This document shows, piece by piece, positions 23,940-40,302 of a stretch of DNA of 64,000 nt (its first letter is position 1; every line of letters begins with the position of its first letter). The stretch is taken from the NCBI GenBank assembly GCA_963740355.1, contig CAVUDW010000003.1:2304001-2368000 (forward strand). The letters run 5' to 3'. Below the pieces are notes generated by a model that ran no database searches, had not been told where the DNA came from, and saw nothing but the letters and a program-made list of their open reading frames with translations. The stretch is from an uncultured Gemmatimonadaceae bacterium (GTDB lineage Bacteria > Gemmatimonadota > Gemmatimonadetes > Gemmatimonadales > Gemmatimonadaceae). The position numbers and the translations under genes were made by a program.

Positions 23940-24046
23940 GGCTGACGGAACAGGGTTCTGTGAAGATGCGGCGGTCGGGTTTCGATCCTGAAGTTGTCCT
24001 GCTCACAATCTCCGCGCCGCTGTGTCAGCAGCAACCAGGGTGAGGC
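23940..24046 (-). repeat. attC (degenerate, most distal)
   Basis: Family motifs cagggttctg, cctgctcacaat and tcagcagcaaccaggg retained; both cores mutated (GTCAGCC and GCCTCAC). Confidence 0.75.
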
Positions 24047-24097
24047 TGCAGTGCGACACCGAGCGCCGATTGACTGGCAGTCTTCGTGAATTCCGTT

Positions 24098-24327: not shown

Positions 24328-25011
24328 ACGGCCTCCGCGATTGACCTGCTGATCGAACGACGTTCCACGACACCACTTATGGAAATGTCATTCCGCTCGC
24401 GTTGCAAGCACAACTATTTGTACAGCGCTGAACTTCGGGCTGTCGGCTGGGTGGCAGAGCGCAAAGGCGACAGAGGCGAGGCGCTGTTCGCTCTCCGCGC
24501 TGAAACTCCGGGGAATGCAAGTCCAAGGCTCGATCAGGCCGCCGCCAAGGCTTGCTCCCGCGTGGAGGTGGGACGTCGCCGGACCATGCGCGCGCTACGA
24601 CGTAGCCGCGCCCGCTGAGGGTGACGATGCCCGCTACGGCGCGCGGAATCCCGTCGCACTCGAACGGCTGACCTACAACTATCCCGACTGCCGACATCGA
24701 CACCGGAATCGAGGACCTGCACCGCATGGCTCTCCTCAATTGTTCGTCGCGTAGATGCGTGCAGGCGCGACGGCGTCGGCGACACGTCGAACAATTCCCG
24801 CGGCGACATCGAGAGCCCGACATCAGCGAGGCAGTCAGACGACGTGGTCGATGGACTGCAGCTCGCGCGAACACGGACGAGGTGCGCCAGAGTGTGGTAC
24901 ACAGACTCAGGTCACGCATGACGGGTGTACACGCATTACGCTTCCGGGGACAGCGGAGCGGTTCCCGGCCCATCGGCCCGTCAATCCTCCGTCCACACGG
25001 AGGCACGTTCC

Positions 25012-25659
25012 ATGCGACGTTTCGTATCACTCCTCGCACTGTGCGCCTGCGTTCCAGCCGCGGCGCACGCTGGTGACCTGCAGCCCGGCCACGGGATTCT
25101 CGAGTCGATCGTCAGTGACGCCCCGGGTGCGTCGGGGTTCGCCTGGCTTCTGGACGACGGGATCGGCGCGTCGAGCGGCCGTCGCACCGGCATCGCGCCC
25201 GAATTCTGCTTGGGCGTCTGCACCTACAACTTCTCGAACAGCTTTGCGAACAGCCTGCTCGCAGGGACCACGAGTTCGGGTGAGTACACGGCGTTTGCAA
25301 GTTTCGTGTTCAGCGGCCCGTCAGTCGAAGCGCGTGCATGCCCGGTGGAATGCCAGCCCGGCGCGTTTGTCTACTCGGCCACCTGGGCAGACGTCCCGAT
25401 CACCATGACGGGCCAGGTGGACCTGGCCTCGAACGTCGATCCGCGCGTGATCCTTCGCTTCGTGATCGCCGGCTCAGGCATGGCACGGGCGCAGACGTTC
25501 CTGTACCCGAATCAGCCAGCCACCTTCAGCTACCGCCAGCTTCGCTACGATTTCAGGTACGACATCGTACCAGAACCACGGGCCATCATGCTCGTGCTCG
25601 TCGGCATGATGGTGCTCGGCGCGTGGCGACTGCGCGTACGCGTGCGCGCGGCCCAGTGA
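25012..25659 (+). CDS. PEP-CTERM sorting-domain protein (paralog 1)
   Basis: GGAGG RBS, AHA signal peptide, VPEPR + TM helix + basic tail. Confidence 0.85.
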   Translation: MRRFVSLLALCACVPAAAHAGDLQPGHGILESIVSDAPGASGFAWLLDDGIGASSGRRTGIAPEFCLGVCTYNFSNSFANSLLAGTTSSGEYTAFASFVFSGPSVEARACPVECQPGAFVYSATWADVPITMTGQVDLASNVDPRVILRFVIAGSGMARAQTFLYPNQPATFSYRQLRYDFRYDIVPEPRAIMLVLVGMMVLGAWRLRVRVRAAQ

Positions 25660-26040
25660 GTCGCTGCTCGCCCCTGACCGGTCGTGTCGGTGGGCGTAGT
25701 GAATACTGGGGCTCGGGCGATTATGTGGTCGCGTTCGCACTTCCCTGACGGTCGCGCCCGCACCCTGCCCCCGTCACGCCCTTTCCGGCTGTAGAACAGC
25801 AGCGGCCGACGTGCTGGCTGCCGCCTGTGTGCAAGGGAAATGCGCACACCCGTGTTTGGGCTGTCTGGAACTTCGTTCAGAGCCAACAACCTCGAGCGAT
25901 GAACGAATGCTCTAGTCGAGTGTGGTGACGCCACGCCATCGCGGGCAGACCGCATCGACATGCGCTACGCTTCAATGACCAACATGCTCGCACGCGCACC
26001 GCGAGCCATGGCGACCACTGTCCACAAGGAGATGCTCCGC

Positions 26041-26688
26041 ATGCGACGCGTCACCGCACTTCTCGCGATCTGCGCCATCCTTCCCGTGGCGGCACATGCC
26101 GGCGATTTTCAGCCTGGCCGCGGGTTTCTGGAGTCGCTTCGGGCTCCATTGCCTCGATACGCATGGTCGATTGCCGATGGGATCTCGTTCACCGACCGTT
26201 ACGGACCCGGCATCGCGCCCGGGGATTGTGTGGGTGTCTGTCCATACAATTTCTCGAATGACTTTTGGGGGGTCACCGAATCGGGTGACTATCAGGTCCA
26301 GGTATTTCTCCACTTCAGCGGGCCGACCGTCACGGCGATCACGAGGTGCGGCCCATACGGGTGTCCGCCCGATCACGTTTTCGGCTCCTACGCGAACGAC
26401 TGGGCGGACGTCCCGATCACGTTGACAGGGGAGGTGCACCTGATCTCGCGCATAGATCCCTTCGTCATCTTCCATTACCTCATTGCAGGATCCGGGACGG
26501 CTCGGGCGGAGACGCGTCAGTTCGCGGTGAATGAGGGCGAGTCCCATGACTACAACCTGCTCCGGTACGAATTCACGTACGACGTGGTGCCGGAGCCGCG
26601 TACCGCAGCGCTGTTCCTCTTCGGCACGATCGCGATCGGTGCCACCAGCCTGACACTGCGACGTCGGCGCGGCGCGGCGCGCGCCTGA
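26041..26688 (+). CDS. PEP-CTERM sorting-domain protein (paralog 2)
   Basis: AAGGAG RBS, AHA signal peptide, VPEPR + TM helix + RRRR; colinear with paralog 1. Confidence 0.85.
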   Translation: MRRVTALLAICAILPVAAHAGDFQPGRGFLESLRAPLPRYAWSIADGISFTDRYGPGIAPGDCVGVCPYNFSNDFWGVTESGDYQVQVFLHFSGPTVTAITRCGPYGCPPDHVFGSYANDWADVPITLTGEVHLISRIDPFVIFHYLIAGSGTARAETRQFAVNEGESHDYNLLRYEFTYDVVPEPRTAALFLFGTIAIGATSLTLRRRRGAARA

Positions 26689-27209: not shown

Positions 27210-27305
27210 CGCTAACGAGACAGGGTTCTGCTGCAATGCGGCCACGAGATGGCCCGCCCGCTCACGATATCTCGATCGCATTGTCGGCAGCAACCGGCGT
27301 TAGGC
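27210..27305 (-). repeat. attC
   Basis: cgctaacgagacagggttctgctgc...gcagcaaccggcgttaggc, 96 bp. Confidence 0.9.
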
Positions 27306-27406
27306 GCGGAAGGGGTCATGCCCGCTTCGCCCGGTACCAGAGTAGAACAGCCGCATGAACAAGCGTTGCCAAATCACGTGCGCACTGAGCCCCATCACGC
27401 AGCACG

Positions 27407-28180
27407 TTAGTACAGTCCGGCGAAGGTGTGACCCACCCAAGCGAGGCCGCGGGCGAGCGACTGACCAACGCCAGACGAGGCGCCTAGCCATGCGCTGACC
27501 TCGACAACGAGGCAGATCGCCAACGCCAGCCAGTACGCCCGGTGGACTCGCCGCTCGCGAAAAGCATCGTACCCGATGCCGCCGAGGATGAACATGTTGG
27601 TCGCCAGAATGCCTGCGGGCGTCGCCCAATCCACGGGACCGAACATCGTCATCACGATGCGAAACCCGGCAGCCCCCAGCCCGGCCGCGCCTGCCACCAG
27701 CATCAGCCGCTTGTGGATCGCGCGGTTCCTGCGCAGGACGATCGCTACGGTGTAGAAGCCGATGAAGAGCACGAGCGTCGCAAAGATCATCAGGCCGAAC
27801 GACGACCAGAAGGACGGCTCTGGCGACGCTACCGCCGCTGCCATCTGCACACCGAGAACTAGCGTGCCGGTAGCCGTCATGACCGCCGCGAGCCCGATGC
27901 TGCTCCAGCCCAGCGTGCGATGCGTGCGCACCCGCCGCGCGTGGATCAGTCCGGCCTGGAGCGGCAGGAGGAGATACCACGCGAAGAAACTCCAGCCATG
28001 GAGATGCACGGCGGGCGCGGCCGCCGGATAGGTGCCTCGGATGTTTGGGCCGAAGTACGTGAACCAGAAGCCAAGGTACGCGGTGGCACTCAAGGCCAGC
28101 GCGGTCAGCAGATAGTGCGCCTCCCGCTGCCGGGAGGGAGCGCCCACGACCACGGGCACGGCATCAGTCATGAGCGCCAT
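27407..28180 (-). CDS. Cassette: multi-pass membrane protein
   Basis: VHLHG, HRTLGW, HKRLML and VHRAYW His motifs; about 7 TM. Confidence 0.8.
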   Translation of the reverse strand: MALMTDAVPVVVGAPSRQREAHYLLTALALSATAYLGFWFTYFGPNIRGTYPAAAPAVHLHGWSFFAWYLLLPLQAGLIHARRVRTHRTLGWSSIGLAAVMTATGTLVLGVQMAAAVASPEPSFWSSFGLMIFATLVLFIGFYTVAIVLRRNRAIHKRLMLVAGAAGLGAAGFRIVMTMFGPVDWATPAGILATNMFILGGIGYDAFRERRVHRAYWLALAICLVVEVSAWLGASSGVGQSLARGLAWVGHTFAGLY

Positions 28181-28268
28181 ACGTCACGCAGGCGTGGGGG
28201 GGACGACACATCGGAACATCATCACGAGTGACCTGCGTGGCAAACACGAGACGTCGAGGTGAAGTAGC

Positions 28269-28412
28269 GCCAAACGAAACTGGGTTTTGCTGCACGGAGT
28301 CCTCCACGCGCGTTCCTGTTCACGTCAGGCGTCGTCGCCTCGACGGGTGAATGTCTGCGGCGACTGGACACCGTCCATACGCCCAGTCATCGGTCACCAA
28401 CCGTCGTTAGGG
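28269..28412 (-). repeat. attC (long, divergent, 144 bp)
   Basis: gccaaacgaaactgggttttgctgc...ccaaccgtcgttaggg; overlaps the stop codon of the upstream cassette gene. Confidence 0.7.
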
Positions 28413-28904
28413 GGAGCCCAGAACCGGGAGCGACGGATAGAACCACGCATGTCGGATCAGTCGGTCGCGGACCTCGTAGACGACGAGGCTGGTCTGTCCA
28501 CCGACGCCGGATGACGACGCATCCCATCGTGTTCGTTCGTGCGTCGTCACCCATGGCCCCGTCGCGTCGATCGTGCGCAGCTCCGAGCGCGCTGACGGCA
28601 CGGCACGAAAGTATCCCGAGATCATCCGCCGAAACGCGTCGATGCCGCGTCCTACATCGCTCAGTGAGTCGCCAGCCACGCTCATCCACACCACGTCGCT
28701 CGCGACCACCCTCATCATGGCGTCCAGATCCTTGGCATTGAACGCCGCCACGTACGCACGGACCACCGAGATCGGCGTGGTGTCGCGCGCGCTGTTCACC
28801 GCACGCTGCGCGCCTGCGGCAGCGGTGTGGCCGAGAAGCAGGATGACAAGCAGCATGAGGCGGCCTCGCTCGAGACCATCCAAGAGACAACGTACGTGGC
28901 TCAT
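28407..28904 (-). CDS. Cassette: exported SnoaL-like/NTF2 protein
   Basis: VVRAYVAAFNAKDLDAM and VYEVRDRLIRHAWFY; TAA stop lies in the attC R'' box. Confidence 0.8.
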   Translation of the reverse strand: MSHVRCLLDGLERGRLMLLVILLLGHTAAAGAQRAVNSARDTTPISVVRAYVAAFNAKDLDAMMRVVASDVVWMSVAGDSLSDVGRGIDAFRRMISGYFRAVPSARSELRTIDATGPWVTTHERTRWDASSSGVGGQTSLVVYEVRDRLIRHAWFYPSLPVLGSP

Positions 28905-28910
28905 CGCTCC

Positions 28911-29007
28911 ACCTAACGAGACAGGGTTCTGCTGCACGGCGACCGCACCTTCCTTATTCCGGGACACCAGCCGCCGGTCGCCGTGGCTGCAACAATCAGG
29001 GTTAGGC
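28911..29007 (-). repeat. attC
   Basis: acctaacgagacagggttctgctgc...cagggttaggc. Confidence 0.9.
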
Positions 29008-29032
29008 CGCCCGCAACACGTCCCCGACTGCG

Positions 29033-29233
29033 CTACCGCTCGCGTCGGGCGAGCGCTTGGAAGAAGCTGGGGCTCTGTACCGCGTCAGTGAAGTCGATGC
29101 CAACGATCTCCCACCCATCGGCGCCGAGCTCGTTCAAGTACGCCTCCAGTGCATCTCGTTCCTTGATGCCAAAGAAACCACCGCCCTGCACGTCGTTGGT
29201 GCTGATCAACTTGTACTCCCATCGGCGCGACAT
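29033..29233 (-). CDS. Cassette: DUF4177-like small protein
   Basis: WEYKLI...YLNELGADGWEIV; AGGAG RBS. Confidence 0.8.
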   Translation of the reverse strand: MSRRWEYKLISTNDVQGGGFFGIKERDALEAYLNELGADGWEIVGIDFTDAVQSPSFFQALARRER

Positions 29234-29239
29234 CGAGTT

Positions 29240-29450
29240 CTCCTGTGTTGTTCAACTTTGCGCGGGCGAGCCACCCCGATGCGGCGATGTCCGCACCGTG
29301 AAGATCCGGTATCTACGGTAGAGCGTCCGCGCTGGAGATGCTTGCCGCGGGCAGATCCAGCACTTCGCTGACCCGGATGGGCAGGTCGCGGACGCAAATT
29401 TGCCCACCACACTGGTCGGGGTTCACGGTAATGGGGTCCTTGAGTTCAAC
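29240..29450 (-). pseudogene. DUF433 antitoxin-like pseudogene
   Basis: ITVNPDQCGGQICVRDLPIRVSEVLDL...ALP*IPDLHGADIAA; in-frame TAG at 29313-29315 and no clear start codon. Confidence 0.65.
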
Positions 29451-29535
29451 GGTCTGCCGCGTGCGCCTCGCCCTGGTTGGGAAGGCTGGAAACCTGTCGT
29501 CGAACAAGAGTGCGCAACACCACAGGTGGCTGGCG

Positions 29536-29631
29536 TTCTAACGAGACAGGGTTCTGCTGCAATGCGGCTTCTTGATCCTACGCCTCCTCAACGATGGTCG
29601 GCCGCATTGTCAGCAGCAACCCGGGCTAGGT
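29536..29631 (-). repeat. attC (R'' mutated to ACCTAGC)
   Basis: ttctaacgagacagggttctgctgc...gcagcaacccgggctaggt. Confidence 0.9.
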
Positions 29632-30220
29632 GGCTGGCGGGCTGCAGCGAGATCCGAAACCGTTTGCCGGGCGTGCCACCATGACTCTCGGGTTTGGAAA
29701 AATTTTCGACGAAAATCCCACCATTTGATTCGATCACTCGCTGGGATGCTACGTTCGCGGCATCCGTTGTGAGCTCGACGAACGGGAGGTCAAGCGACAC
29801 GAGTTCGGGCAGCAACAGCGCGAGCGCGCGCGTCGCATAGCCGCGACGCCGTTTCCATGGTACGACCGAATAGCCGATGTGTCCGAGACACGTCGGAGGG
29901 AGCGCCGTCGTTCCTGGCTGCCACCGCACATTGATGGCGCCTGAGAATTCACCGTCCCAGAGCCAGCGCGTGAAGCCAGGAAGCCGAGGCACCGACGAAC
30001 CATCCGGAAGCACAATCGCCGGTCCGCGCGCGGCGCGGTCGACTTGCGCCTCGACGAATTGCGCCGGATCCTGCGCGATGCGCGCCAACTCGTCGTGCGC
30101 GGCGTCCGCCCGTTGCGTATCCGGCGACCAACCTTGGCGGAGTGCCGCGGCGTAGCTCGGTAGAAACTCCGCGGCGGGCCAGACGAGTTCCACGGTGAAC
30201 ACGCGCAGTGGTGAAGCCAC
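29588..30220 (-). CDS. Cassette: GNAT family acetyltransferase
   Basis: GHIGYSVVPWKRRRGYA and NVASQRVIESNGG; GTG start overlaps R' and the 3' end runs into the attC. Confidence 0.9.
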   Translation of the reverse strand: MASPLRVFTVELVWPAAEFLPSYAAALRQGWSPDTQRADAAHDELARIAQDPAQFVEAQVDRAARGPAIVLPDGSSVPRLPGFTRWLWDGEFSGAINVRWQPGTTALPPTCLGHIGYSVVPWKRRRGYATRALALLLPELVSLDLPFVELTTDAANVASQRVIESNGGIFVENFSKPESHGGTPGKRFRISLQPASHLARVAADNAADHR

Positions 30221-30314
30221 CTAACGAGACGGGGTCCTGTTGCAATGCGACCGCACGATCGTTCTCCTGCGCACGATACCTCGGTCGCATTGTCAGCAGC
30301 AACCAGGGTTAGAC
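30219..30314 (-). repeat. attC
   Basis: acctaacgagacggggtcctgttgc...gcagcaaccagggttagac. Confidence 0.9.
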
Positions 30315-30459
30315 CTCAGGCGCACGAATGCCCTCGCTCTCGACGGCGAAGTGAGCATGTGGCGATCAGCCGTACCCACACGTTGCCACAACCTTCCGCC
30401 GCCCAGCTATTGCCGCTGAACTAGTGAGCGGCGCCTTGACCGCGATCCGTTGCCAGCGG

Positions 30460-30807
30460 CTAGAGGTCCCACCCGAGGAAATGACGGACGTCATCTATGG
30501 CGTCGTAGGCGTGCCCAGAGACGTAGGTGTCCGGATCCAGGAGGGCCGAACGGAGGAATGGTTCCACACGCGCCCGGTCCAACTGCCCGAAACGCCGCGC
30601 AAGATGCCCAAAGCCCAGGATGGCGTTCCCCCGCACGTTGAAGTGGGAGTGCGCAGCCAGCCGGAGACAGACTCCCTGAGTCCACTCCAGATTGTCCGAG
30701 TACAGCGATGCGGCAACCGGCACGTAGAGCAACTCTGCCGGGTCATCCCGCAGGATCGCCGCTTCTGCGGCTGCTTCACCGAGAAAATCGAGTGACTCGT
30801 ACTGCAT
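30460..30807 (-). CDS. Cassette: small helical (HEAT-like) hypothetical protein
   Basis: HSHFNVRGNAILGFGHLAR...ALLDPDTYVSG; bounded by attC sites. Confidence 0.75.
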   Translation of the reverse strand: MQYESLDFLGEAAAEAAILRDDPAELLYVPVAASLYSDNLEWTQGVCLRLAAHSHFNVRGNAILGFGHLARRFGQLDRARVEPFLRSALLDPDTYVSGHAYDAIDDVRHFLGWDL

Positions 30808-30829
30808 GGAAGCAATGAGCTTTGCTGAG

Positions 30830-30925
30830 GTCTAACGAGACAGGGTTCTGCTGCAATGCGACCGCACGTTCCTTCTCCTGCTCACGGCACCCCGGTCGCA
30901 TTGTCAGCAGCCACCCGGGTTTGGC
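30830..30925 (-). repeat. attC
   Basis: gtctaacgagacagggttctgctgc...gcagccacccgggtttggc. Confidence 0.9.
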
Positions 30926-30950
30926 GGCCGCGCAAACGCTCGCGGCTTGA

Positions 30951-31493
30951 TCAATCGCAGTCGCTATACCCGGTGTGGCGGCCGCAGTGCAAACAGCGAA
31001 AGATATAGGCCACGGGACTACCCGATGCGTCCATCTCCGCGAACCACGATTCCCAGTCGCTGCCCGACATCTCTGACTCGCGTCGAAGGTCCGGAATCGC
31101 GTCCGGGAAGCGCGTGACGATCTCCTCTTGCCCGGCTGTGCCGAGGTATGCAGCGGCGTCGCCGCAGCAGACGGCCCAACGCTCCTGCTGCCATCCACTG
31201 AACCCGGGCGTTCGAAATGCGACCTCAGCGATCACGTCCGCGGAAGCTACCGGCCAAATGCCGCCGCCAATGCCGTCTGAGTCGGTGCACTCCGCATCAA
31301 ACATCTCGTGTACGGAGCCATCGGCGATACACCACGGACATACCGTGCCATGCAGTTCGTCCACGGCGTAGACCGGGCCGACGTACATAAACCCGCGCAC
31401 CCGATGGCAGCACCGACATGTGTCGCGAGATTGGACAATGCTTCCGGTCGCAATCGGATCCGGATGATGACGGAACGTAGGCAATGCTTCCAC
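30951..31493 (-). CDS. Cassette: CbrC (UPF0167) family protein
   Basis: LPTFRHHPDP, CPWCIADG, RTPGFSGWQQERW and YIFRCLHCG. Confidence 0.9.
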   Translation of the reverse strand: MEALPTFRHHPDPIATGSIVQSRDTCRCCHRVRGFMYVGPVYAVDELHGTVCPWCIADGSVHEMFDAECTDSDGIGGGIWPVASADVIAEVAFRTPGFSGWQQERWAVCCGDAAAYLGTAGQEEIVTRFPDAIPDLRRESEMSGSDWESWFAEMDASGSPVAYIFRCLHCGRHTGYSDCD

Positions 31494-31520
31494 GGGTGCG
31501 CTGCTCAATGATGACTGACC

Positions 31521-31616
31521 GCCTAACGAAACTGGGTTCGGCTGCAATGCGACCGCGCGATCCTTCTCCTGCTCACGATAGCCCGGTCGCATTGTCAGCA
31601 GCAACCCGGGTTAGGG
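31521..31616 (-). repeat. attC
   Basis: gcctaacgaaactgggttcggctgc...gcagcaacccgggttaggg. Confidence 0.9.
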
Positions 31617-31688
31617 CGCACGCTCACGTCCTGCCACACGATCCGCCCCCCCGGCGCCTGCCGCGTAATCGCCCGCCAGCGTCGAGGC

Positions 31689-32087
31689 TCACTGCAGTCG
31701 CCTCTGCAGATCAATGACGGATGCACGCCACGCATCGCCTTCGTCCGACTCAGCCCACAACTCCGCCAGCTCCGAACTTTCGAGCACCAGCGCCACTGCG
31801 CGGCGCGTGTTTTCCACGAGCTCGTCGCCAAGGTCAAACCCGGCCAGTTTTCGCACGTACGCGGCAACATCCGGAGGCAGGTCCAAGGAAGGTCGGCCAC
31901 GGATACCGGCGATGATCTCCGCGGCAGCCAACCCTTCCTCGCATACGGGGGCTTCGAGATAATCGGGCGCGAGATCCAAGATCGCTTGAACCGCGACTCC
32001 CGCCACGATCAGACTTTCGGCCTCAAGACCTGCGAACCAGTCCATGGCGCCGTCGTTCGCGAATGCATCGATGCCCCAAGTACCCAT
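31689..32087 (-). CDS. Cassette: DUF4259-like protein
   Basis: MGTWGIDAFANDGAMDW and SELAELWAES...DLQRRL. Confidence 0.85.
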   Translation of the reverse strand: MGTWGIDAFANDGAMDWFAGLEAESLIVAGVAVQAILDLAPDYLEAPVCEEGLAAAEIIAGIRGRPSLDLPPDVAAYVRKLAGFDLGDELVENTRRAVALVLESSELAELWAESDEGDAWRASVIDLQRRLQ

Positions 32088-32110
32088 AACACTCCGGAAG
32101 GTTGATTGCG

Positions 32111-32206
32111 CCCTAACGAAACTGGGTTCTGCTGCAAAGTGGCCATTAGAACCTTATCCTGCCCACAGGCCTTCGGCCACTTTGGCAGCAGCAACCGGCG
32201 ATAGAC
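32111..32206 (-). repeat. attC (R'' mutated to GTCTATC)
   Basis: ccctaacgaaactgggttctgctgc...gcagcaaccggcgatagac. Confidence 0.85.
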
Positions 32207-32216
32207 CACAGCCGCA

Positions 32217-32672
32217 CTATGAGGCCCAATCCGGCAACGGCGTGTCAGCGAGCACTGGCTGCAACTCCCGAAACGCATTGGATACTTCCGTGTCCCACGG
32301 CCAAAGACCGTCGCGGTTCGGATAGATGAGCTGCAGGGCGCGGAACGCCCGCTCCCCATAGTACCGAAGGGCTGTGCCAAGATACGCGGCGTGCTGGTAC
32401 TCCGGGACGCTGCGAAAGGTGACCGAGTAGCCCTTGAGAATCTCTGAGTAGGCCTCAGCCGCGCCATACGTTGCTCCGCCACGAATGTTGGCGACGACGT
32501 TGTTGAGCACGACCTGCGCCGTCTCCATGCGTAGGCCGACGAGAATCACTTCCGGATGGGCGAACGAGTCTTCGAGTCCGATCGTGTAGGCGAACCCTGG
32601 ACCTTGGTCGTCTGCGTCGATGCGCATCACGATCCATCCATGTGCCGCAATCGTCGCGCGAATATCGTCCAT
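32217..32672 (-). CDS. Cassette: DUF4262-like protein
   Basis: HGW, FAYTIGL...HPEVILVGL and LQLIYPNRDGLWPWD. Confidence 0.85.
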   Translation of the reverse strand: MDDIRATIAAHGWIVMRIDADDQGPGFAYTIGLEDSFAHPEVILVGLRMETAQVVLNNVVANIRGGATYGAAEAYSEILKGYSVTFRSVPEYQHAAYLGTALRYYGERAFRALQLIYPNRDGLWPWDTEVSNAFRELQPVLADTPLPDWAS

Positions 32673-32697
32673 CGGTGATCCAGAGGTTTGTGCTGTG

Positions 32698-32792
32698 GTC
32701 TAACGAGACGGGTTCTGCTGCGCGGCGACCGCACAAAAGGCCTCACGAGCACCGTAGCCCGGTCGCCGCGTCAGTAGCAACCCGGGTTCGCC
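32698..32792 (-). repeat. attC
   Basis: gtctaacgagacgggttctgctgc...gtagcaacccgggttcgcc. Confidence 0.9.
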
Positions 32793-32811
32793 GGCAACCC
32801 GCCCTCGCACG

Positions 32812-34026
32812 TCAGTGTCGACACCGCGGAATTTCGGCGGCGGTGCGCTGCAGCAGCCAGCGTCCGATCTGCTCTGTCGCGATCCCCGCCATGTCACCGC
32901 CGAGATTCTGCAACACGATCACACCGATCTTCTCCTCAGGCCGCAGAAACACGGCGGACGCGTGACCGTCCACGTTGCCGTAGTGCCAGAGCAGCGGCGT
33001 CGCCACCCGCGAATCGAGGGCCACCTCTCGAAACCAGCCGAGGGCCATATCGACGCGATGGGTGCGGTTTGTGGAATCCAGCTGCACTTGCGGTTCGGTC
33101 ATGCGGCGCGCGACCGCCGGGGCGACCACTGCGCGCCCCGCCGCAGTCGTGCCGAGGTGTGCGATCAGAAATGGCGCAAGATCGCGGACTGTGGACGTTA
33201 GGCCGATGAAGCCCGCGACGGCACCATAGCGTGCATGCACTGCTTGCTCGACCCGCGCGTCATCCTGATCCCAGTAGAAGGCCGCTAGCCTCGACGACTG
33301 CGCGGCGGTGAGCGTGATGCCGGAGGCCGTCATGCCAAGAGGCGCGAGCAGTCGGGCACGCACGAGCGGCTCATAGGGCACGCCGGCCACGCGTTCGACG
33401 ACGTGCCCGAGGAGCGCATAGCCATAGTTGGAGTAGTCCATCACGCTGCCCGGACGCGCGCGCAGCGGTGTGGTCGCGAGCGCCTGGTAGAGATCCGCCA
33501 CCTCGTACGCGTCCCAGACGCCCGGATCGATCGTCCCGGTGACGCTTTGATTGCGGCGATTCGGAGGCTGCTTCGGCAGGCCGGCGGTGTGCGTGAGCAA
33601 GTGGCGCGCGGTGATCGCCGTCCCCGACGCGTCGGTGGGGACGTGCACCGTGTCGGGCAGATACCGCGCCACCGGGGCATCCAACTCGAGCCGTCCGTCG
33701 GCGGCCAGTTGCAGTGCAAGCGTCGCGGTGAAGAGCTTGGTCACCGACGCGACGTTGTACGGCGTGTCAGCGGTCGCCAACGTGCGGAGCCGCTTATTGG
33801 CGAACCCGACGCCGTCCGCGAACACAAGCGCGTCGTGTACGACCACGCCGACACTGACACCAGGAATCCCAGCGATCGTCGCATACCCGGCAATTGCAGC
33901 ACGAACGTCCGCCTGAAATTCGCGCGCGAAGCAGCGCGCCGTGGCGGGCGGCGGCACGACTTGACTGAACGCGGGCGTCGCGCACATCGCCGCGACGAGC
34001 AGCCCTCGTCTGACGCGTGGCCACAT
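32812..34026 (-). CDS. Cassette: serine hydrolase (beta-lactamase-like family)
   Basis: SVTK (SxxK), YSN and HYG motifs; LLTHTAGL; signal peptide. Confidence 0.9.
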   Translation of the reverse strand: MWPRVRRGLLVAAMCATPAFSQVVPPPATARCFAREFQADVRAAIAGYATIAGIPGVSVGVVVHDALVFADGVGFANKRLRTLATADTPYNVASVTKLFTATLALQLAADGRLELDAPVARYLPDTVHVPTDASGTAITARHLLTHTAGLPKQPPNRRNQSVTGTIDPGVWDAYEVADLYQALATTPLRARPGSVMDYSNYGYALLGHVVERVAGVPYEPLVRARLLAPLGMTASGITLTAAQSSRLAAFYWDQDDARVEQAVHARYGAVAGFIGLTSTVRDLAPFLIAHLGTTAAGRAVVAPAVARRMTEPQVQLDSTNRTHRVDMALGWFREVALDSRVATPLLWHYGNVDGHASAVFLRPEEKIGVIVLQNLGGDMAGIATEQIGRWLLQRTAAEIPRCRH

Positions 34027-34107
34027 GGGTCGGTGCTCCGTTGCGCGGGAAGGGGAGAGGCGGCGCGGCGCGTGGCGAGAACTCCCAAACACACTTGATG
34101 CTTTGCT

Positions 34108-34204
34108 GGCTAACGGAACGGGGCTCTGCTGCGCGGCGACCGCACAAAAGGTCCGCCTGATCACAATATTCCGATCGCCGTGTCAGCAGCAACCCGGGTT
34201 AGCC
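34108..34204 (-). repeat. attC
   Basis: ggctaacggaacggggctctgctgc...gcagcaacccgggttagcc. Confidence 0.9.
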
Positions 34205-34390
34205 CGCCGCCTCCGTCGGGGCACGACGGAAGAGCCACCACGACCACGCCGTCATCAGCAGCGCCGCGACGGTGGTAATCGCGAACATCGGACTGCGGGC
34301 GACCGACGTCCCTTCTTCTACGACTCGCGCCACGTGAGCGAGCACCAGCAGGAAGTACAACACACCGGATAGCACAAGATACGAGCGCAT
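34199..34390 (-). CDS. Cassette: small 2-TM membrane protein
   Basis: MRSYLVLSGVLYFLLVLAHVAR; GAGG RBS; TAA stop in the attC R'' box. Confidence 0.7.
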   Translation of the reverse strand: MRSYLVLSGVLYFLLVLAHVARVVEEGTSVARSPMFAITTVAALLMTAWSWWLFRRAPTEAAG

Positions 34391-34397
34391 GCTCACC

Positions 34398-34826
34398 TCA
34401 GGCGATGTGATCGAGTGGCCGGCCAATCTCCCAGTGATGGCCGAATGGATCGACGATTCGCCCCAGCAACCAGCCGTTGCGCTCGTCCACGCTGAAGACG
34501 CTCTCCGCGCCAGCCTGCAGCGCACGTGCGACGACATCGTGCGGAGCTGACACAACAAGAACCAGGCGGACCGTGGAGCCCCGCAGCGTTTCGGGACTGA
34601 AATTCTGGTGCTGCGGTGATTCATCCGTCACCCAGAACTCGGCCCCGTGCGCGGAGAGATGGGCCACTACGGCGCCATCGTCCGCGTCGATGCGAAAGAG
34701 CGTCTCCGCACCGAAGGCCTGCGTATAGTATTCGACGGCGGCGGCACCGCGACGCACCGAGAGCATCGGAGCCAGCTGCATGCGATCTACCACGGACGCC
34801 TCCGGTGATTGAAAACTTGCGCGCAC
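34398..34826 (-). CDS. Cassette: VOC (PhnB-like) protein
   Basis: AVEYYTQAFGA and GWLLGRIVDPFGHHWEIGRP; start may be the ATG at 34781. Confidence 0.85.
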   Translation of the reverse strand: MRASFQSPEASVVDRMQLAPMLSVRRGAAAVEYYTQAFGAETLFRIDADDGAVVAHLSAHGAEFWVTDESPQHQNFSPETLRGSTVRLVLVVSAPHDVVARALQAGAESVFSVDERNGWLLGRIVDPFGHHWEIGRPLDHIA

Positions 34827-34843
34827 CCTGGCCGAGCGAGGCG

Positions 34844-34935
34844 GGCTAACGAAAATGGGTTCTGCTGCGTAGCGACCGCACGATACCCACTCCTGCTCAC
34901 CGACCGCCGGTCACAATGTCAGCAGCAGGTTAGGC
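34844..34935 (-). repeat. attC (5-bp deletion next to R'')
   Basis: Ends gcagcaggttaggc instead of gcagcaacccgggttaggc. Confidence 0.85.
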
Positions 34936-35431
34936 GGCGTCGCGCGCGCTCGCAGCATCGAGCAGCTTCGCGAAGATTACCTTCCCGTCACCAACCGCGT
35001 AGAAGTCCGGAATCTGGCCGCACTCGTGGTACCCACGTTGCCGGTAAAAATGACGCGCTCGATCGAGCGGCGGCAGGGCACTCGTTTCGATAATGAGTAG
35101 CCGGCCACCATTTGATGTGACCTGTGCCTCAACGTAGTCGAGTAGCGCGCGCCCGACGCCTTGTCCATGCGATGCCGGGATGACACCGATCCACCACAAG
35201 TTCCACACCTGTTCCGCGTACGCGTCTGGCGCGAAGTACACCCAGCCTTCTGGTGTGCGATCCGCGCCAGCCGCCCAGACAACCACCGCATGACTGGCGC
35301 AAGTGTCCAGCATGGAGATCGGTGAGCACGGTCCCGAGCAGCGCCGCAGCGCTCATAGGCTCAAACAGGCCGGTCGCGACCGCGACGTCGAGTAGCGCAT
35401 CGGTGTCGGATGGAACAGCGCAGCGGAGCAT
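34930..35431 (-). pseudogene. Cassette: GNAT acetyltransferase, frameshifted at about 35300
   Basis: N-terminus (MLRCAVPSD...ATGLFEP) and C-terminus (WNLWWIGV...GQGVGRAL...IETS) lie in different frames. Confidence 0.8.
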
Positions 35432-35573
35432 TTGGTGTGTTGGGCTGAACATGAAATGAGCGACACGACGCTCGCCGTGTACACGCGCATATCCGCACAC
35501 AGCGCTGCCGGTTCCCGTTCCTTGCACGACCACCGCATATGCGCGGCAAGACTACGACCAGCACCCCCAAGCC

Positions 35574-35650
35574 GCCTAACGAGACAGGGTTCTGCTGCAC
35601 GGCGACCACACCCACCCCCCTCCTGCTCACTGACCGCCGGTCGCCGTGAC
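35574..35650 (-). repeat. attC (truncated; L'' and R'' lost)
   Basis: Family match stops after ggtcgccgtg and joins an ORF-like fragment. Confidence 0.8.
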
Positions 35651-35773
35651 AACCGCACTGACGATGGAGACGGCGAGGCAGAAGACCCCGACGAGAATTC
35701 CCGACGCGAGTGACGTGACTGCCACATGGAATTGCGACGAGCGTGGAGGCATTGGACGAATGTCCGGTAAGCC

Positions 35774-35867
35774 TGCTAACGAGCAGGGTTCTCTGCGGTG
35801 CGGCCGACGAATGGTCCGCCTACTCACAATACCCCGGCCGCAGCGTCAGCAGCAACCCGTGTTAGCC
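35774..35867 (-). repeat. attC
   Basis: tgctaacgagcagggttctctgc...gcagcaacccgtgttagcc. Confidence 0.85.
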
Positions 35868-36381
35868 AGCTGCCCACTTCGCGCGCAGACGTTCGGTGGT
35901 AGCGGTGAGCGGGAAGAGTGTTTCACGGGACGAGACCGATGTAAAAAAGCGGCGTCTCAGCGAGATGGTCCTCGAGACCGCGTAACTCCATGTCGTCCCA
36001 ATCCCGATCTGGGCGAAGAAAGCCCACAGTCGCGGCGAAGTCCCGAATAACACCGAGGATCGAGCGGCTCGCAGTCTTGGCGACGACCACCGTGGACATC
36101 GACGCGACTTCTGCGTTGATCCAAGCGTACTCCATGCGAAGCCGCTGCAACCGGAGCCGCACCAACTGCGGCAAGCGCTCTGGCAAGCGGCGCACGTCCC
36201 TGGCGGGCATCACAATTGGCAGGAGGGTCACAGAGCTCACGAGTAGCAGCAGCGGCTGGCGCTGCACGACGATTCGATTCACATACCAATCGCCGAGCGC
36301 CGTGTCGGACGAATCCGGCGCATGCTCGCTAAGCGGCAGGGCTATTGCAAGCTTCTCGGTACGCCGTAGCACAACACTCAC
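35862..36381 (-). CDS. Cassette: DUF6933-like protein, probably frameshifted in the A6 run at 35943-35948
   Basis: LGDWYVN, LLLVSSVTLLPIV and SRSILG; removing one base extends the ORF from the stop at 35923 to the TAA in the attC R'' box. Confidence 0.7.
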
Positions 36382-36394
36382 ATCGTCACTGGCT

Positions 36395-36491
36395 GGCTAA
36401 CGAGACAGGGTTCTGCTGCACGGCGACCGCACAAAATGATCTCCTGCTCACAATAGCTTTGTCGCCGTGGCTGCAGCAACCCGTGTTAGAC
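36395..36491 (-). repeat. attC
   Basis: ggctaacgagacagggttctgctgc...gcagcaacccgtgttagac. Confidence 0.9.
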
Positions 36492-36558
36492 GCCCGCGCG
36501 CCGACCGTCGGATGCACGCGGCCTGCACCTCGACAGAAGTCCCCCCTTTATCCCCGCC

Positions 36559-36957
36559 TCATCGTGATTCGGCGCCGGTCACCGTCATGCGAGCTGACCT
36601 GCGCCAAGACTCTACTGCCACCACAAGCGTGACGACACTGACCGCGCCGACGACCACCGCGAGCGTGTTTCTCGTGTGGCCGCAATCACCGCTAGTCGAG
36701 AACCACCACGCCGGGTGCAGCGATACCGCGCCAATGAGCAGGCGCGAGACGCGCGTGGACCGCGCTTGACGCTTGGGCAATAGATGCCAGACGAGTGCGC
36801 ACAACGCCGACAGCGCCCACGACAAATGTGCGGGGCGATTCATATCCGCAACGAACTGCTGAACGTCGACGCCCTTCGCGAGCGTGCAAGCCGCGGCGAC
36901 ATCAGGCACGGCGACAAGTAGTGCCACGCCGCTCGCTATGATATCGCGTGCGCGCAC
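36559..36957 (-). CDS. Cassette: membrane hypothetical protein
   Basis: GGAGGAG RBS then GTG; signal-like N-terminus, 3 TM, LHPAWW...GDCG. Confidence 0.7.
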   Translation of the reverse strand: MRARDIIASGVALLVAVPDVAAACTLAKGVDVQQFVADMNRPAHLSWALSALCALVWHLLPKRQARSTRVSRLLIGAVSLHPAWWFSTSGDCGHTRNTLAVVVGAVSVVTLVVAVESWRRSARMTVTGAESR

Positions 36958-36969
36958 AACTCCTCCGGC

Positions 36970-37066
36970 GCCTAACGAGACAGGGTTCTGCTGCAAAGCG
37001 ACCGCACAAAAGATCGTCCTGATCACAATACCCCGGTCGCCGCGTCAGCAGCAACCCGGGTTAGGC
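36970..37066 (-). repeat. attC
   Basis: gcctaacgagacagggttctgctgc...gcagcaacccgggttaggc. Confidence 0.92.
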
Positions 37067-37153
37067 CGCTGCGAAATCACAATGCTGACCGCGTCACCGA
37101 GTTCAAGCGCTGTTCTGCTCAGCATCGGACGCGACCTGTCACACGGGGTCCGT

Positions 37154-37630
37154 TCAGCTCCGCCAAATCGTCTTGCGTCGCTTGAATAGGAGGACCACTC
37201 TTTGAGGGCGAACATTTGGTTGAATTCCTGTGACGTAATCGGAATTGCCGAAATTTGGATATGCCGTCTCAGTCTCAAGGTACGATGTTGCCAACTCCCA
37301 ACCGTCCGATCCCAGCTTTGAAATTACCTGTGAATCTGGAGATACGGACGCTGGCCTGAGGGCAGCAGACCCCGTACGATCATGCCCTTCTGCGAGCACC
37401 GAAACAACTTTGTATTCCCAATGCGTTGCCGGGGCGAGCACGGTGGTACCGCCGCCAAGCAGCAGGCCGAGGAGCACTAAAGCGATCAGAACGTGCCCCT
37501 GAAGGCGAGAGATGGCAGCGGAGGCGTGTGTGACTGATGAAGAGGCTCGAGGCGCCGTGGATGCAGTCCCCGCTTCGGATGGGGGTACGCTGCCTGACGA
37601 GGGGCAGAATACACCGACGAGTTTTCCATT
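37154..37630 (-). CDS. Cassette: membrane-anchored DUF4177-like protein (start undetermined)
   Basis: TM helix, then WEYKVV...LGSDGWEL...LLFKR. Confidence 0.6.
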   Translation of the reverse strand, partial: NGKLVGVFCPSSGSVPPSEAGTASTAPRASSSVTHASAAISRLQGHVLIALVLLGLLLGGGTTVLAPATHWEYKVVSVLAEGHDRTGSAALRPASVSPDSQVISKLGSDGWELATSYLETETAYPNFGNSDYVTGIQPNVRPQRVVLLFKRRKTIWRS

Positions 37631-37686
37631 TAGTTCACGTGATCCTATTTGTACGTGCCAGAGCTGTGCACGCCGACTGGGGTGCG

Positions 37687-37783
37687 GCCTAACGAGACAG
37701 GGTTCTGCTGCGCGGCGACCGCACAAACGGCCCTCCTGATCACAATACGCAGGTCGCCGCGTCAGCAGCAACCCGGGTTAGGC
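37687..37783 (-). repeat. attC (most proximal)
   Basis: gcctaacgagacagggttctgctgc...gcagcaacccgggttaggc. Confidence 0.92.
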
Positions 37784-38555
37784 ACTGCGCCCGGACGATC
37801 CTGTACGGACGAGTCGTGCCATCGCCGACGGCATACAGATCGGGCCGGCTGCGCCATTCGTGAGCTATTCCGCGCATCAGCAATGCATTGTCGAGCTCGA
37901 CTGATCCTCGCGGAAAGCGCGTGACATCGGAAAAATAGCGCGAGTAGTGCTCCTGAACGTCGAGTGCCGTCACTGCCCAGTCCAGCGAGTGAAGCTCCAT
38001 CCCGTGGAAGTGATCCGGGTGGTGCGTCGCCGAGTATCCAGTCGCGCCGAGGGAGAAGAAGCCCGCTGCGGCGGTGAGGTTGGAAAAGACACTCGAGGCG
38101 GGGAGCTGATGCGCCACACTTCCGCGAAACGTTACTTCAGGTTCGCCATCGGCGCGCACAATGCGAAGGCCCACGGCATCCAGACTGTCGGTGGACTCGA
38201 AGCGTGCACCCGAGAAGATCCCTGGGAACACACGACCGCCAAGTAGGCGATTAAAGGCAGAGTTGGTGTTTCGCTGCGGGATATAGACGCCCTCGTGGGA
38301 CACGCCGTCGGCGATCCACTCCACCGCTATCCGGTGTGCCGCGTTCTCGGAGCCGAGCCCGAGCCACGCAGGAACGTGACGGGGACGGAGCGCGGCGAAC
38401 CGGATCATGCAGACACCGGCGATACCGGCACCACCGTACAGCTTCGGCCGGAATGGCTTCGGCAAAACGCGCTGCAGAACGTCCGGCGCCACCCGGTAAT
38501 TCAGGAGGATACGCCGGTCGATCGTACCGTGGATCGTATCGAGGAACAGCGACAT
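37740..38555 (-). CDS. Cassette: DUF2071 (YqjF-like) protein
   Basis: IDRRILLNYRV, GVCMIRF and SENAAHRIAVEW; ATG at 38555 is preceded in frame by VRILLDECR. Confidence 0.8.
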   Translation of the reverse strand: MSLFLDTIHGTIDRRILLNYRVAPDVLQRVLPKPFRPKLYGGAGIAGVCMIRFAALRPRHVPAWLGLGSENAAHRIAVEWIADGVSHEGVYIPQRNTNSAFNRLLGGRVFPGIFSGARFESTDSLDAVGLRIVRADGEPEVTFRGSVAHQLPASSVFSNLTAAAGFFSLGATGYSATHHPDHFHGMELHSLDWAVTALDVQEHYSRYFSDVTRFPRGSVELDNALLMRGIAHEWRSRPDLYAVGDGTTRPYRIVRAQCLTRVAADAATCVL

Positions 38556-38582
38556 CCGGCATTCGTCGAGCAGAATACGCAC

Positions 38583-38807
38583 TCAGCCCTGGGCAGCTTG
38601 GGCGACGAGGAGCGCCGTCCCGGCATCGAGCGTGGCCACGGCCTGCTCGCGCGTCACCGACGGGAAGTCCGCGAGAAACGCGTCCAACGTCTCGCCGCTC
38701 TCGAGATAGTCGAGGAGCGTCTGCGCCGGAACGCGTGTGCCGGCGAACACGGCGGTGCCGCCCATCACATCCGGGCTGCGTTCAATTGGGAGGTGCGTGA
38801 CACTCAT
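38583..38807 (-). CDS. Cassette: DUF433 antitoxin (VapB45-like)
   Basis: PDVMGGTAVFAGTRVP...LLDYLE.G...FLADFPSVTREQA; GGAGG RBS. Confidence 0.9.
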   Translation of the reverse strand: MSVTHLPIERSPDVMGGTAVFAGTRVPAQTLLDYLESGETLDAFLADFPSVTREQAVATLDAGTALLVAQAAQG

Positions 38808-38859
38808 CGGATCCTCCATCGGCGTCTGGTTGAGAAACCTACACCGGAGCCTGTCGGGT

Positions 38860-38892
38860 GTCTAACGAGAATTATACGGAACTGCGACTAAC
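38860..38892 (-). other. Candidate attI site
   Basis: Core GTTAGAC (38866-38860) has no attC body upstream; L-like GTATAAT 4 nt upstream; second GTTAGTC at 38892-38886. Confidence 0.75.
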
Positions 38893-39143: not shown

Positions 39144-40193
39144 TCAGAGATGGGGCCGCGGTGCCCGGCCGGGAGGCGCCGGCGCGCCTGCGATTACGGG
39201 AGCGCCGGGAGTCGCCAGCGGCGCGGCCATGTCGACATCCAACGGGCTGCGCACACCCAGGCCGCCTCGGTTCAGGACATGCGTGTACAACATCGTCGTC
39301 GACACGTCGCGATGGCCAAGCAGTTCCTGCACGGTACGAATGTCGTAGCCCGACTCGAGCAGGTGCGTGGCGAAGGAATGCCTGAGCGTGTGACAACCGA
39401 CACGCTGGGCGATGCCAGCCGACCGCGCGGCGTCCGACACGGATTTTTGGAGGAACGTGTGGTGCACATGATGCGTCCGGAGTTGCGCCGTCGGCCCGTG
39501 CCAGTACTCCTGTCGCGACGGAAACAGCCAGCACCACTGCCACGCGCGCATGGCGCGGGACGATTTCCGATCGTACGCCCCCGGGAGCTCGAGATAGCCA
39601 CCACCCCGCGCCGCACGCATCCGAATCAGCCGGCGCGACGCCTCGACCTGCGCCGCCACGCGGTCACGCACCGAGGCAGGCAGCATCGTCACACGGTCGC
39701 GCCCACCTTTCGCGTTCCGGACCAGGATTTCACCGCGATTGAGATCGACATCCTTCAACCGCAGCGAACAACACTCCGCCAACCGCAAACCCGAGCCGTA
39801 GAGCAACATGGCCATCAACTGGGCGGTGCCATGCATCGCGCGCAACACGCGGTCGACATCCGCCCGCGATAGCACATTGGGCAGCCGCTGCGGCTTCTTC
39901 GCCGCAACGACACCGTTGGCCGAGGGCAACGGCAGCTCCAGCACATCGCGATAGAGGAACTGCAGCGCCGCCAAGGCCTGATTCTGCGTGGAGGCCGCCA
40001 CCTTTCGGTCACGGGCCAGATGCGTCAGGAATGCACGCACATGCTCTGGCCCCAACTGCCGAGGGTGACGGCGCTCATGGTACGCCACATAGGCGCGCAC
40101 CCAGCGGGTGTAGGCCTGCACCGTGCGCGGACTGTAGCGCCGCACCAGCGCACGATCCCGCAGCACCTGAAAGAGAGTCGGTGACCCTGACAT
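39144..40193 (-). CDS. intI: Integron integrase
   Basis: LLYGSGLR, KGGRDR, integron-specific insertion (LPGAYDRK...WQWCWLFPS...HH), HTLRHSFATHLLESGYDIRTVQELLGH, TTMLYTHV; catalytic R-K-H-R-H-Y all present. Confidence 0.97.
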   Translation of the reverse strand: MSGSPTLFQVLRDRALVRRYSPRTVQAYTRWVRAYVAYHERRHPRQLGPEHVRAFLTHLARDRKVAASTQNQALAALQFLYRDVLELPLPSANGVVAAKKPQRLPNVLSRADVDRVLRAMHGTAQLMAMLLYGSGLRLAECCSLRLKDVDLNRGEILVRNAKGGRDRVTMLPASVRDRVAAQVEASRRLIRMRAARGGGYLELPGAYDRKSSRAMRAWQWCWLFPSRQEYWHGPTAQLRTHHVHHTFLQKSVSDAARSAGIAQRVGCHTLRHSFATHLLESGYDIRTVQELLGHRDVSTTMLYTHVLNRGGLGVRSPLDVDMAAPLATPGAPVIAGAPAPPGRAPRPHL

Positions 40194-40223
40194 GCGACCA
40201 CGTTGACCCGACGCCCTGAAAAA

Positions 40224-40239
40224 CCGATCACCAGTTCGG
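40224..40239. promoter_or_regulatory. Candidate operator upstream of intI (SOS/Cheo-box-like)
   Basis: CCGATC-ACCA-GTTCGG, one mismatch from CGAAC-N4-GTTCG, about 30 bp before the ATG. Confidence 0.3.
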
Positions 40240-40302
40240 CGCAACGCACAGCATTCCGATGCACGCCCTCACGTGACAGAGCTGGCTCCCCGCCCAGCCG
40301 CC

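Follow-up and report, generated by a model that had tools for sequence, protein, structure and literature searches.

A cassette array of about 16 cassettes, belonging to a sedentary chromosomal integron, was analysed in a stretch of 64,000 nucleotides (nt) from a Gemmatimonadaceae genome of soil type (positions 2304001-2368000 of its contig), hereafter called the window. The attC recombination sites of this array have a strongly asymmetric central spacer: the 5' arm counts 8 nt from R' to L', and the 3' arm 4 nt from L'' to R''; geometries are given below in this order, i.e., as 8/4. These are genuine attC sites, and they probably show one of several spacer geometries that recur in the attC family accompanying the inverted integrases of Gemmatimonadota. 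The 8/4 geometry is a lineage-specific variant of a known system, with no special match to the integrase (IntI) of the window. The features that define attC were kept, namely the complementary RYYYAAC/GTTRRRY boxes, the G following AAC, a single bulge on the 3' arm of the L helix, and 6 base pairs (bp) to the second bulge, and the 8/4 subfamilies of the window were also found beside integrases 53-72% identical to its IntI.

attC sites are recognised by their shape, and class 1 cassettes and Vibrio repeats are the source of nearly all the rules for this shape. The Gemmatimonadota arrays offer natural, structure-conserved sites with a far more lopsided central spacer and reveal a wide range of spacer geometries in a single phylum, which makes them natural substrates for probing what the central spacer must do. 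The finding leaves the picture of how integrons work as it is, and its significance is modest.

Geometry and folding of the window attC sites

From position 38860 down to 27210, the + strand carried 16 copies of a repeat of about 96 nt, spaced 575-1410 nt apart. Anchored parsing of these 16 sites, from which the site table below was compiled, gave 10 complete 8/4 sites, two complete 7/4 sites, two sites with a damaged 3' arm, and two with the 5' arm only. The original prediction, made from the sequence, had described 4- and 8-nt spacers in most copies and 7 nt in place of 8 in two of them, and the parsing bears this out (the 7/4 sites start at 32698 and 35774). Searched with a 3'-arm pattern that included a 4-nt spacer, the window gave 13 matches against 0.08 expected, and none of 100 shuffles reached 13; the corresponding 5'-arm pattern with an 8-nt spacer matched 15 times against 0.18 expected. 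All matches lay on the + strand.

On the + strand, the sites read RYYTAAC, G, spacer, GTTCTGCTG, stem and loop, T, CAGCAG, C, AAC, spacer, and GTTAGRY. Extrahelical bases on the 3' arm and a G after AAC are given as marks of the bottom strand in Bouvier 2009 (PMC2727003) and Nivina 2016 (PMC5027507). Because its 3' arm carries the bulged bases and its AAC is followed by G, the + strand is the recombining bottom strand; the cassette strand is the - strand, as had been proposed, and the orientation of the open reading frames (ORFs) agrees. The 12 complete sites had complementary R' (RYYYAAC) and R'' (GTTRRRY) boxes, with point changes in some R'' boxes, and in each of them L' and L'' formed an imperfect inverted repeat with bulges on the 3' arm of the bottom strand. 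The first extrahelical base was C, not G, in 12 of 12 complete sites, and the second was located exactly 6 bp further in (CTGCTG/CAGCAG), likewise in 12 of 12. The second base was T in ten sites and G in the other two. Six bp between the first and last extrahelical base is described as the optimum for IntI1, IntI3, IntI2*179E, and SonIntIA in PMC3053210.

When the bottom strands were folded as DNA, hairpins were obtained, and in 10 of 14 sites no shuffle of 200 matched the native hairpin. The cleanest sites folded into an R box of 7 bp, a GAGA bulge of 4 nt, a single C-G pair, a mismatch (A x G), a 5-bp helix (GGGTT/AACCC), the bulged C, 6 bp, the bulged T, and the stem. An alignment of 31 8/4 sites from five arrays was examined for covariation. 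In this alignment, 90.2% of the cells were paired compared with 85.3% in shuffles (0 of 500 reached the native value), with eight pairs changed on both sides, while registers slid out of place gave 22-46%. The five inner R-box pairs formed in 29-31 of the 31 sites, and the L helix plus stem was 96.3% paired, including six pairs with changes on both sides. The two spacer pairs adjoining the L box were paired in 93.5% of the cells, with a GC-to-CG double change in four sequences, whereas the lone C-G pair and its neighbour were each paired in only 45%. The L helix absorbs 2 bp of the spacers, leaving an asymmetric loop of about 6 x 2, in line with the roughly two versus six unpaired central bases expected from the sequence. 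Five to six unpaired bases per arm, as given in PMC5027507, were found neither in the ten 8/4 nor in the two 7/4 sites, whose unpaired bases are about 6 x 2.

The register was checked with an explicit-register caller, which scans every spacer pair (2-11 by 1-10) and assumes 3 bp between spacer and bulge. For the cleanest sites, 8/4 was the sole best parse (13 of 13 pairs for the site at 37687). An alternative fold that would restore 5/6 spacing was looked for, and neither the scan of all spacer pairs nor the folding gave a 6/5 register or structure. A first caller based on constrained minimum free energy folds was discarded because it was noisy, missed most sites, and paired the spacers inconsistently between sites.

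Related loci and the question of co-adaptation

For comparison, one genome per species was scanned, yielding 80 loci with IntI 49-76% identical to that of the window, nearly all of them from Gemmatimonadota, to which the Gemmatirosa plasmid integron was added. Sites were collected with a covariance model (R1) built from 38 6/5 sites, Gemmatimonadota 6/5 sites included. Of the 80 loci, 36 had R1 hits, 141 altogether. In each of these 36 loci, every hit lay downstream of intI and on the opposite strand, so the inverted layout appears to be a trait of the whole Gemmatimonadota IntI clade. The geometry was unambiguous for 110 of the 140 hits that were parsed: 8/5 in 33, 6/5 in 20, 8/4 in 17, 5/5 in 13, 5/4 in 10, 7/5 and 7/4 in five each, 6/4 in three, and other spacers in four. 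The strict neutral caller alone returned a similar spread. The first bulged base was C in 107 of these 110 sites. At least 10 arrays were of mixed geometry; for example, L039 combined 7/5, 8/5, 5/4, and 5/5. Arrays with 8/4 sites were present in the window and at L011, L012, L024, L067, and L073. Across the attC family of Gemmatimonadota, the 3' arm stayed at 4-5 nt and the 5' arm ranged over 5-9 nt. In this continuum of spacer geometries, 8/4 recurs as a minority form.

The outgroup comprised a small phylum (17 genomes in the collection) and four other genomes, with Vibrio, Xanthomonas, Shewanella, and sedentary proteobacterial integrons left outside. The 26 sites obtained from this phylum (G001, G007, and G018-G020) and two other genomes included 17 of 6/5, three of 7/5, and two of 8/5, and the first bulge was C in 24 of 26. 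In a metagenome sample with the window-type L'' box, 18 parsable sites were obtained among the matches listed (80 loci); within these, 6/5 occurred five times, 8/5 four times, 7/5 and 6/4 twice each, 8/4 and 7/4 once each, and other geometries three times. One genome of the small phylum, G020, held 11 matches to the integron-integrase family above the cut-off (L091-L093, L096, L100-L104, L106, and L107); its integrons had both divergent and inverted layouts, and their attC sites were mostly 6/5 with bulged C and T.

In the alignment, the additional-domain insertion of the window IntI reads AYDRKSS, as the original prediction had stated, where VchIntIA has ALKEKYP and IntI1 has ALERKYP. In VchIntIA, the extrahelical base of the L box is contacted in trans by K209 and Y210 (Larouche and Roy 2011, PMC3053210). 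The counterpart of K209 is kept in the window IntI and that of Y210 is S. Beside the other 8/4 arrays, the motif was AFHRKSS (L011 and L012, IntI 72% identical to that of the window), AFARKSP (L024, with one site), ALRAKLG (L067, 59%), and ALDRKYPQAG (L073, 53%), while 6/5 arrays adjoined IntIs with AFDRKSA or AFDRKDP (L013 and L015). Y210 was replaced in 58 of 81 relatives, whose arrays spanned all geometries, and a tally of KY or non-KY motif against array geometry gave no link between the two. On an IntI tree of 36 rows, the 8/4 class required three changes of state, and the IntIs adjoining 8/4 arrays fell into three distinct lineages, in one of which the motif was the canonical ALDRKYP. 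Two further loci with a KSS motif, L014 (IntI 76% identical) and L019, had no recognisable sites and speak neither for nor against a coupling. The 8/4 sites of L073 (1746-4436) and L067 (3876-5014) shared their sequence subfamilies with the window sites, which suggests that cassettes may have been exchanged between these divergent integrons or drawn from a common pool.

A separate attC class of 8/4 sites that evolved jointly with the window integrase, in which AYDRKSS in place of ALxRKYP would reposition the contacts to a bulge 1 nt nearer to the R box, is unlikely. This explanation draws on the position of the motif, which holds the counterparts of the two residues contacting the L-box bulge (with S for Y210) as described in PMC3053210, on the 8/4 and 7/4 arrays of L011 and L012 (both KSS), whose integrases are the nearest of those accompanied by arrays, and on the low scores that the window sites receive from a model trained on 6/5 sites. 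However, L073 and L067 hold 8/4 arrays of the same subfamilies beside quite different motifs, L013 and L015 combine AFDRK-type motifs with 6/5 arrays, the replacement of Y210 is common across geometries, and mixed arrays are frequent. Co-adaptation is not supported because 8/4 arrays, IntI motifs, and geometries are decoupled in the relatives, where the bulged C is also the rule; what survives of the proposed distinct class is a weak sense, that of a lineage-linked variant.

The array could also be regarded as a fossil, in which 8/4 arose by neutral drift or from a founder indel copied by cassette duplication and the sites are no longer recombined. Four of the 16 sites are truncated or damaged, a 17th is decayed, the GTT triplet of R'' is changed at 29536, 32111, and 30830, and the sites within the array resemble one another, all as decay would have it. 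We nevertheless consider this quite improbable, since at least five other arrays, whose cassettes are different, retain 8/4, both the L helix and the spacer pair show compensatory changes, the 6-bp spacing between bulges is exact in 12 of 12 complete sites, and intI is intact, with its catalytic-region motifs aligned to 2a3v. That other box borders or another fold would turn the sites back into 5/6 is hardly credible: box borders are conventions, and two spacer nt per arm do pair, but the bulged C fixes the register, the scan of spacer pairs left 8/4 as the only best parse of the cleanest sites, the same caller returned 6/5 for aadA-type sites, and counting the unpaired bases alone leads to 6 x 2 rather than to 5/6.

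Several points weigh against the reading of 8/4 as one recurrent geometry of a shared attC family. Most relatives are metagenome-assembled genomes on short contigs; 27 of the 140 parsed R1 hits were ambiguous, and three scored too low; R1 was trained on 6/5 sites and may under-sample odd geometries. The neutral caller presupposes its 3 bp between spacer and bulge, and in strict mode it recovered only 6 of the 12 complete window sites. The IntI tree came from a quick search without bootstraps, the location of an array beside an integrase is no proof of its use by that integrase, and the presumed activity of the window sites and IntI derives from conservation alone.

Taking the 8/4 sites as members of this family, we propose that the bottom (+) strand folds into the hairpin recombined by IntI. 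All features known to steer binding and the choice of strand are retained in these sites. The central spacer of the hairpin is uneven (8 nt on the 5' arm, which is cleaved, against 4 nt on the 3' arm), and two nt per arm pair and lengthen the L helix. The surplus bases of the 5' arm would probably form a flexible bulge of 4-6 nt after the cleaved AAC, and the 3' arm would run nearly continuously between the R and L helices. Such a bulge would keep the bend direction set by the classical 6-versus-5 asymmetry, and the 6 x 2 loop may be seen as an exaggeration of that asymmetry, its surplus bases lying on the arm that is longer in classical sites. In the 8/4 sites, the bulged C is 7 nt from R'' rather than 8. 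Both the orientation of the bulges of the unpaired central spacer and the bend imposed are described as affecting recombination efficiency in Bouvier 2009 (PMC2727003) and Demarre 2007 (PMC2095811). On this model, Gemmatimonadota integrases would cope with various spacer geometries and draw on a common pool of cassettes. A wider proposition is put forward tentatively: the inverted-clade integrases of Gemmatimonadota may accept a broad spacer range (5-9/4-5 nt), and 8/4 sites may mark a cassette pool moving between integrons with integrases only about 50-70% identical. If this is true, the integrase would read the side on which surplus bases bulge, together with the L-helix bulges, and not the R-to-L distance, and the accepted rule of five to six nt per arm would be loosened.

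Comparison with characterised sites and detection by covariance models

The same caller was applied to the class 1 integron regions of four plasmids. Four aadA-type sites (after the qacL, aadA1, aadA2, and HAD-hydrolase genes in L010) were 6/5 with extrahelical G and T, and the sites of the class 1 VIM-5 and cmlA cassettes were 6/5 with C as the first bulged base. The 8/4 geometry is non-canonical because aadA-type sites parse as 6/5 with G and T under identical conditions, which agrees with the departure from classical spacers and bases that had been predicted. The attC central spacer usually has five to six bases per arm as described in PMC5027507; 8/4 is outside this usual range, yet spacer length was never a strict rule.

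With the classical attCaadA1, attCaadA2, and attCaadA7 sites and the Vibrio cholerae repeats (VCRs), the window sites share the inverse core sites R' and R'', the G after AAC, an L helix whose bottom-strand 3' arm has a bulge, a second bulge (T) 6 bp away, and a 5' spacer arm longer than the 3' arm. They differ in having spacers of 8 and 4 nt instead of 6 and 5, C instead of G as the first bulged base, and an L helix extended by 2 bp that leaves the 6 x 2 loop. Among characterised sites, attCdfrA1 (A-N7-8-C) illustrates that a C at the L-box bulge and departures from T-N6-G exist, and Larouche and Roy 2011 (PMC3053210) describe integrases as differing in their tolerance of departures in the extrahelical bases. 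As presented there, attCdfrA1 varies in the identity and spacing of the bulged bases, whereas the window sites have the canonical 6 bp and differ in the R-L spacers instead.

A known counterpart within the phylum was the integron on plasmid 1 of Gemmatirosa kalamazoonensis (NZ_CP007129.1, L006), with an IntI 54.8% identical and an inverted layout. Its sites also have C as the first bulge and 6 bp to the second; unlike the window sites, 35 of 35 strictly called sites on the array strand were 6/5. The inverted integron-integrase group of Treponema and others, named in Cury 2016 (PMC4889954), has a same-strand intI with its 3' end adjoining attI, as observed here; the host of the window integron is a member of Gemmatimonadota, unlike the Treponema type, and the likeness considered here is one of layout. 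No description of attC structure in Gemmatimonadota was found in the literature on attC spacers, extrahelical bases, and Gemmatimonad integrons; in the accessible portion of Ghaly 2021 (PMC8618304), the phylum is only listed among integron hosts.

Detection was assessed with R1 and with a surrogate covariance model (R2) trained on 20 6/5 sites taken solely from class 1 cassettes and the outgroup phylum. R1 found 13 of 14 near-complete window sites, eight of them at E < 0.01; in its alignment, the sites have 2 nt inserted behind R' and lack 1 nt of the 3' spacer. With default filters, R2 found two window sites at 17.6 and 14.9 bits (E 0.13 and 0.64), two of about 14 sites in L011, one of four in L073, and none of three in L067, whereas Gemmatimonadota arrays of 6/5 and 8/5 geometry were found at 24-58 bits in the same run. 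When the filters were switched off over 14 kb, five window sites were recovered at E < 0.01 (17.6-27.9 bits); of the nine remaining near-complete sites, eight had 7-16 bits and the one at 32111 was unlisted. The Gemmatirosa sites scored 39-58 bits with R2, in contrast to 28 bits at most for those of the window. R2 has no spacer variation in its training set and probably penalises indels more than the IntegronFinder model. It is plausible that standard models miss 8/4 sites, as the original prediction had cautioned, judging from surrogate models and not from IntegronFinder's own, and covariance models trained on clinical sites may, on this surrogate basis, under-call the cassettes of soil phyla. 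An Rfam scan of the whole window gave no hits, which is uninformative in that Rfam has no attC family.

Integron layout and neighbouring features

The integrase of the window scored 386 bits against TIGR02249 (cut-off 265) and aligned with VchIntIA (2a3v) over residues 28-335 (E 1.8e-75). Its reading frame is intact, and the conserved catalytic-region motifs align to 2a3v. The additional domain specific to integron integrases is present, with alpha-I2 gap-free against VchIntIA, K209 and W219 kept, and S at Y210. The nearest integrase homologues carry the source names Gemmatimonadaceae or Gemmatimonas. Both intI and the cassettes are located on the - strand, with the 3' end of intI toward attI, i.e., in the layout of the inverted integron-integrase group. 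The attI junction, a single GTCTAAC copy, is situated 278 nt from the intI stop (39144), and the remainder of attI presumably lies between the two. With its integrase gene, attI junction, and 16 sites, the integron is complete.

Most cassettes hold a single gene in the same orientation and end in an attC site. Pfam domains were identified in 14 of the 18 - strand cassette ORFs tested, and these were unrelated to one another: DUF433 with DUF2071, DUF4177, DUF6933, two GNAT, glyoxalase, PF00144, DUF4262, DUF4259, UPF0167, and SnoaL. The first cassette has two ORFs, encoding DUF433 (38583-38819) and DUF2071 (37740-38582) proteins. A 450-aa cassette ORF (32812-34164, -) carries a PF00144 beta-lactamase-family domain (E 2e-65). 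Coordinates of the integron components are compiled in Table 1.

Table 1. Integrase gene, attI junction, and attC sites of the window, with spacer geometry (5'/3' arm), extrahelical bases, and basis of assignment.
Feature	Position	Strand	Geometry and extrahelical bases	Basis and remarks
intI, integron integrase	39144..40244	-		366-aa ORF, TTG start; alpha-I2 = AYDRKSS; TIGR02249 and 2a3v alignment
attI/first-cassette junction	38860..38866	-		GTCTAAC on +, i.e., GTTAGAC on the cassette strand; sequence, and repeat family D10 aligning the junction with attC R' boxes
attC 1	37687..37783	-	8/4, C + T	bottom strand reads on +; fold -30.5 kcal/mol, z -5.8
attC 2	36970..37066	-	8/4, C + T	sequence, fold, anchored parse
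attC 3	36395..36491	-	8/4, C + G	sequence, register scan, fold, anchored parse
attC 4	35774..35867	-	7/4, C + T	sequence, fold, anchored parse
truncated attC	35574..35660	-	8-nt 5' spacer	R', spacer, L', and part of the stem kept; L'' and R'' missing; sequence, parse, 5'-arm pattern
damaged attC	34844..34935	-	8-nt 5' spacer	5' arm intact; 3' arm without the L'' end (AAC) and all of the 4-nt spacer
attC	34108..34204	-	8/4, C + T	sequence, fold, anchored parse
attC	32698..32792	-	7/4, C + T	R'' = GTTCGCC; sequence, register scan, fold, parse
attC	32111..32206	-	8/4, C + G	R'' = GATAGAC; sequence, anchored parse
attC	31521..31616	-	8/4, C + T	sequence, register scan, fold, parse
attC	30830..30925	-	8/4, C + T	R'' = GTTTGGC; sequence, fold, parse
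attC	30219..30314	-	8/4, C + T	sequence, fold, parse
attC	29536..29631	-	8/4, C + T	R'' = GCTAGGT; sequence, fold, parse
damaged attC	28911..29007	-	8-nt 5' spacer	altered 3' arm: GCTGCAAC, 7 nt, GTTAGGC; sequence, fold, parse
attC 5'-arm remnant	28269..28300	-	8-nt 5' spacer	GCCAAAC, 8 nt, GTTTTGCTG; no 3' arm recognisable; sequence, parse, 5'-arm pattern
attC, last intact site	27210..27305	-	8/4, C + T	sequence, register scan, fold, parse
decayed 17th site	23940..24047	-	8/4-type	GAC and GTG replace AAC and GTT; outside the range of the original prediction

In the damaged site at 34844..34935, CAGCAGCAG directly abuts GTTAGGC, and the fold is poor (z -0.53). Between 35574 and 35867, an attC with the 5' arm only is followed about 100 nt further on by a complete 7/4 site, with no ORF of at least 60 aa wholly between them; the pair looks like the outcome of a deletion or a gene-less cassette. 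The decayed site at 23940-24047 is located 3 kb past the last intact attC, and between the two there are paralogous + strand ORFs (24925-25659 and 25960-26688) that are about 72% identical over repeats. At the attI side of the first junction (38860-38874), the bottom strand reads AAC-GAGA, and GAGA also opens most of the attC 5'-arm spacers (GAGACAGG); this common element may reflect chance or a shared cleavage-site context.

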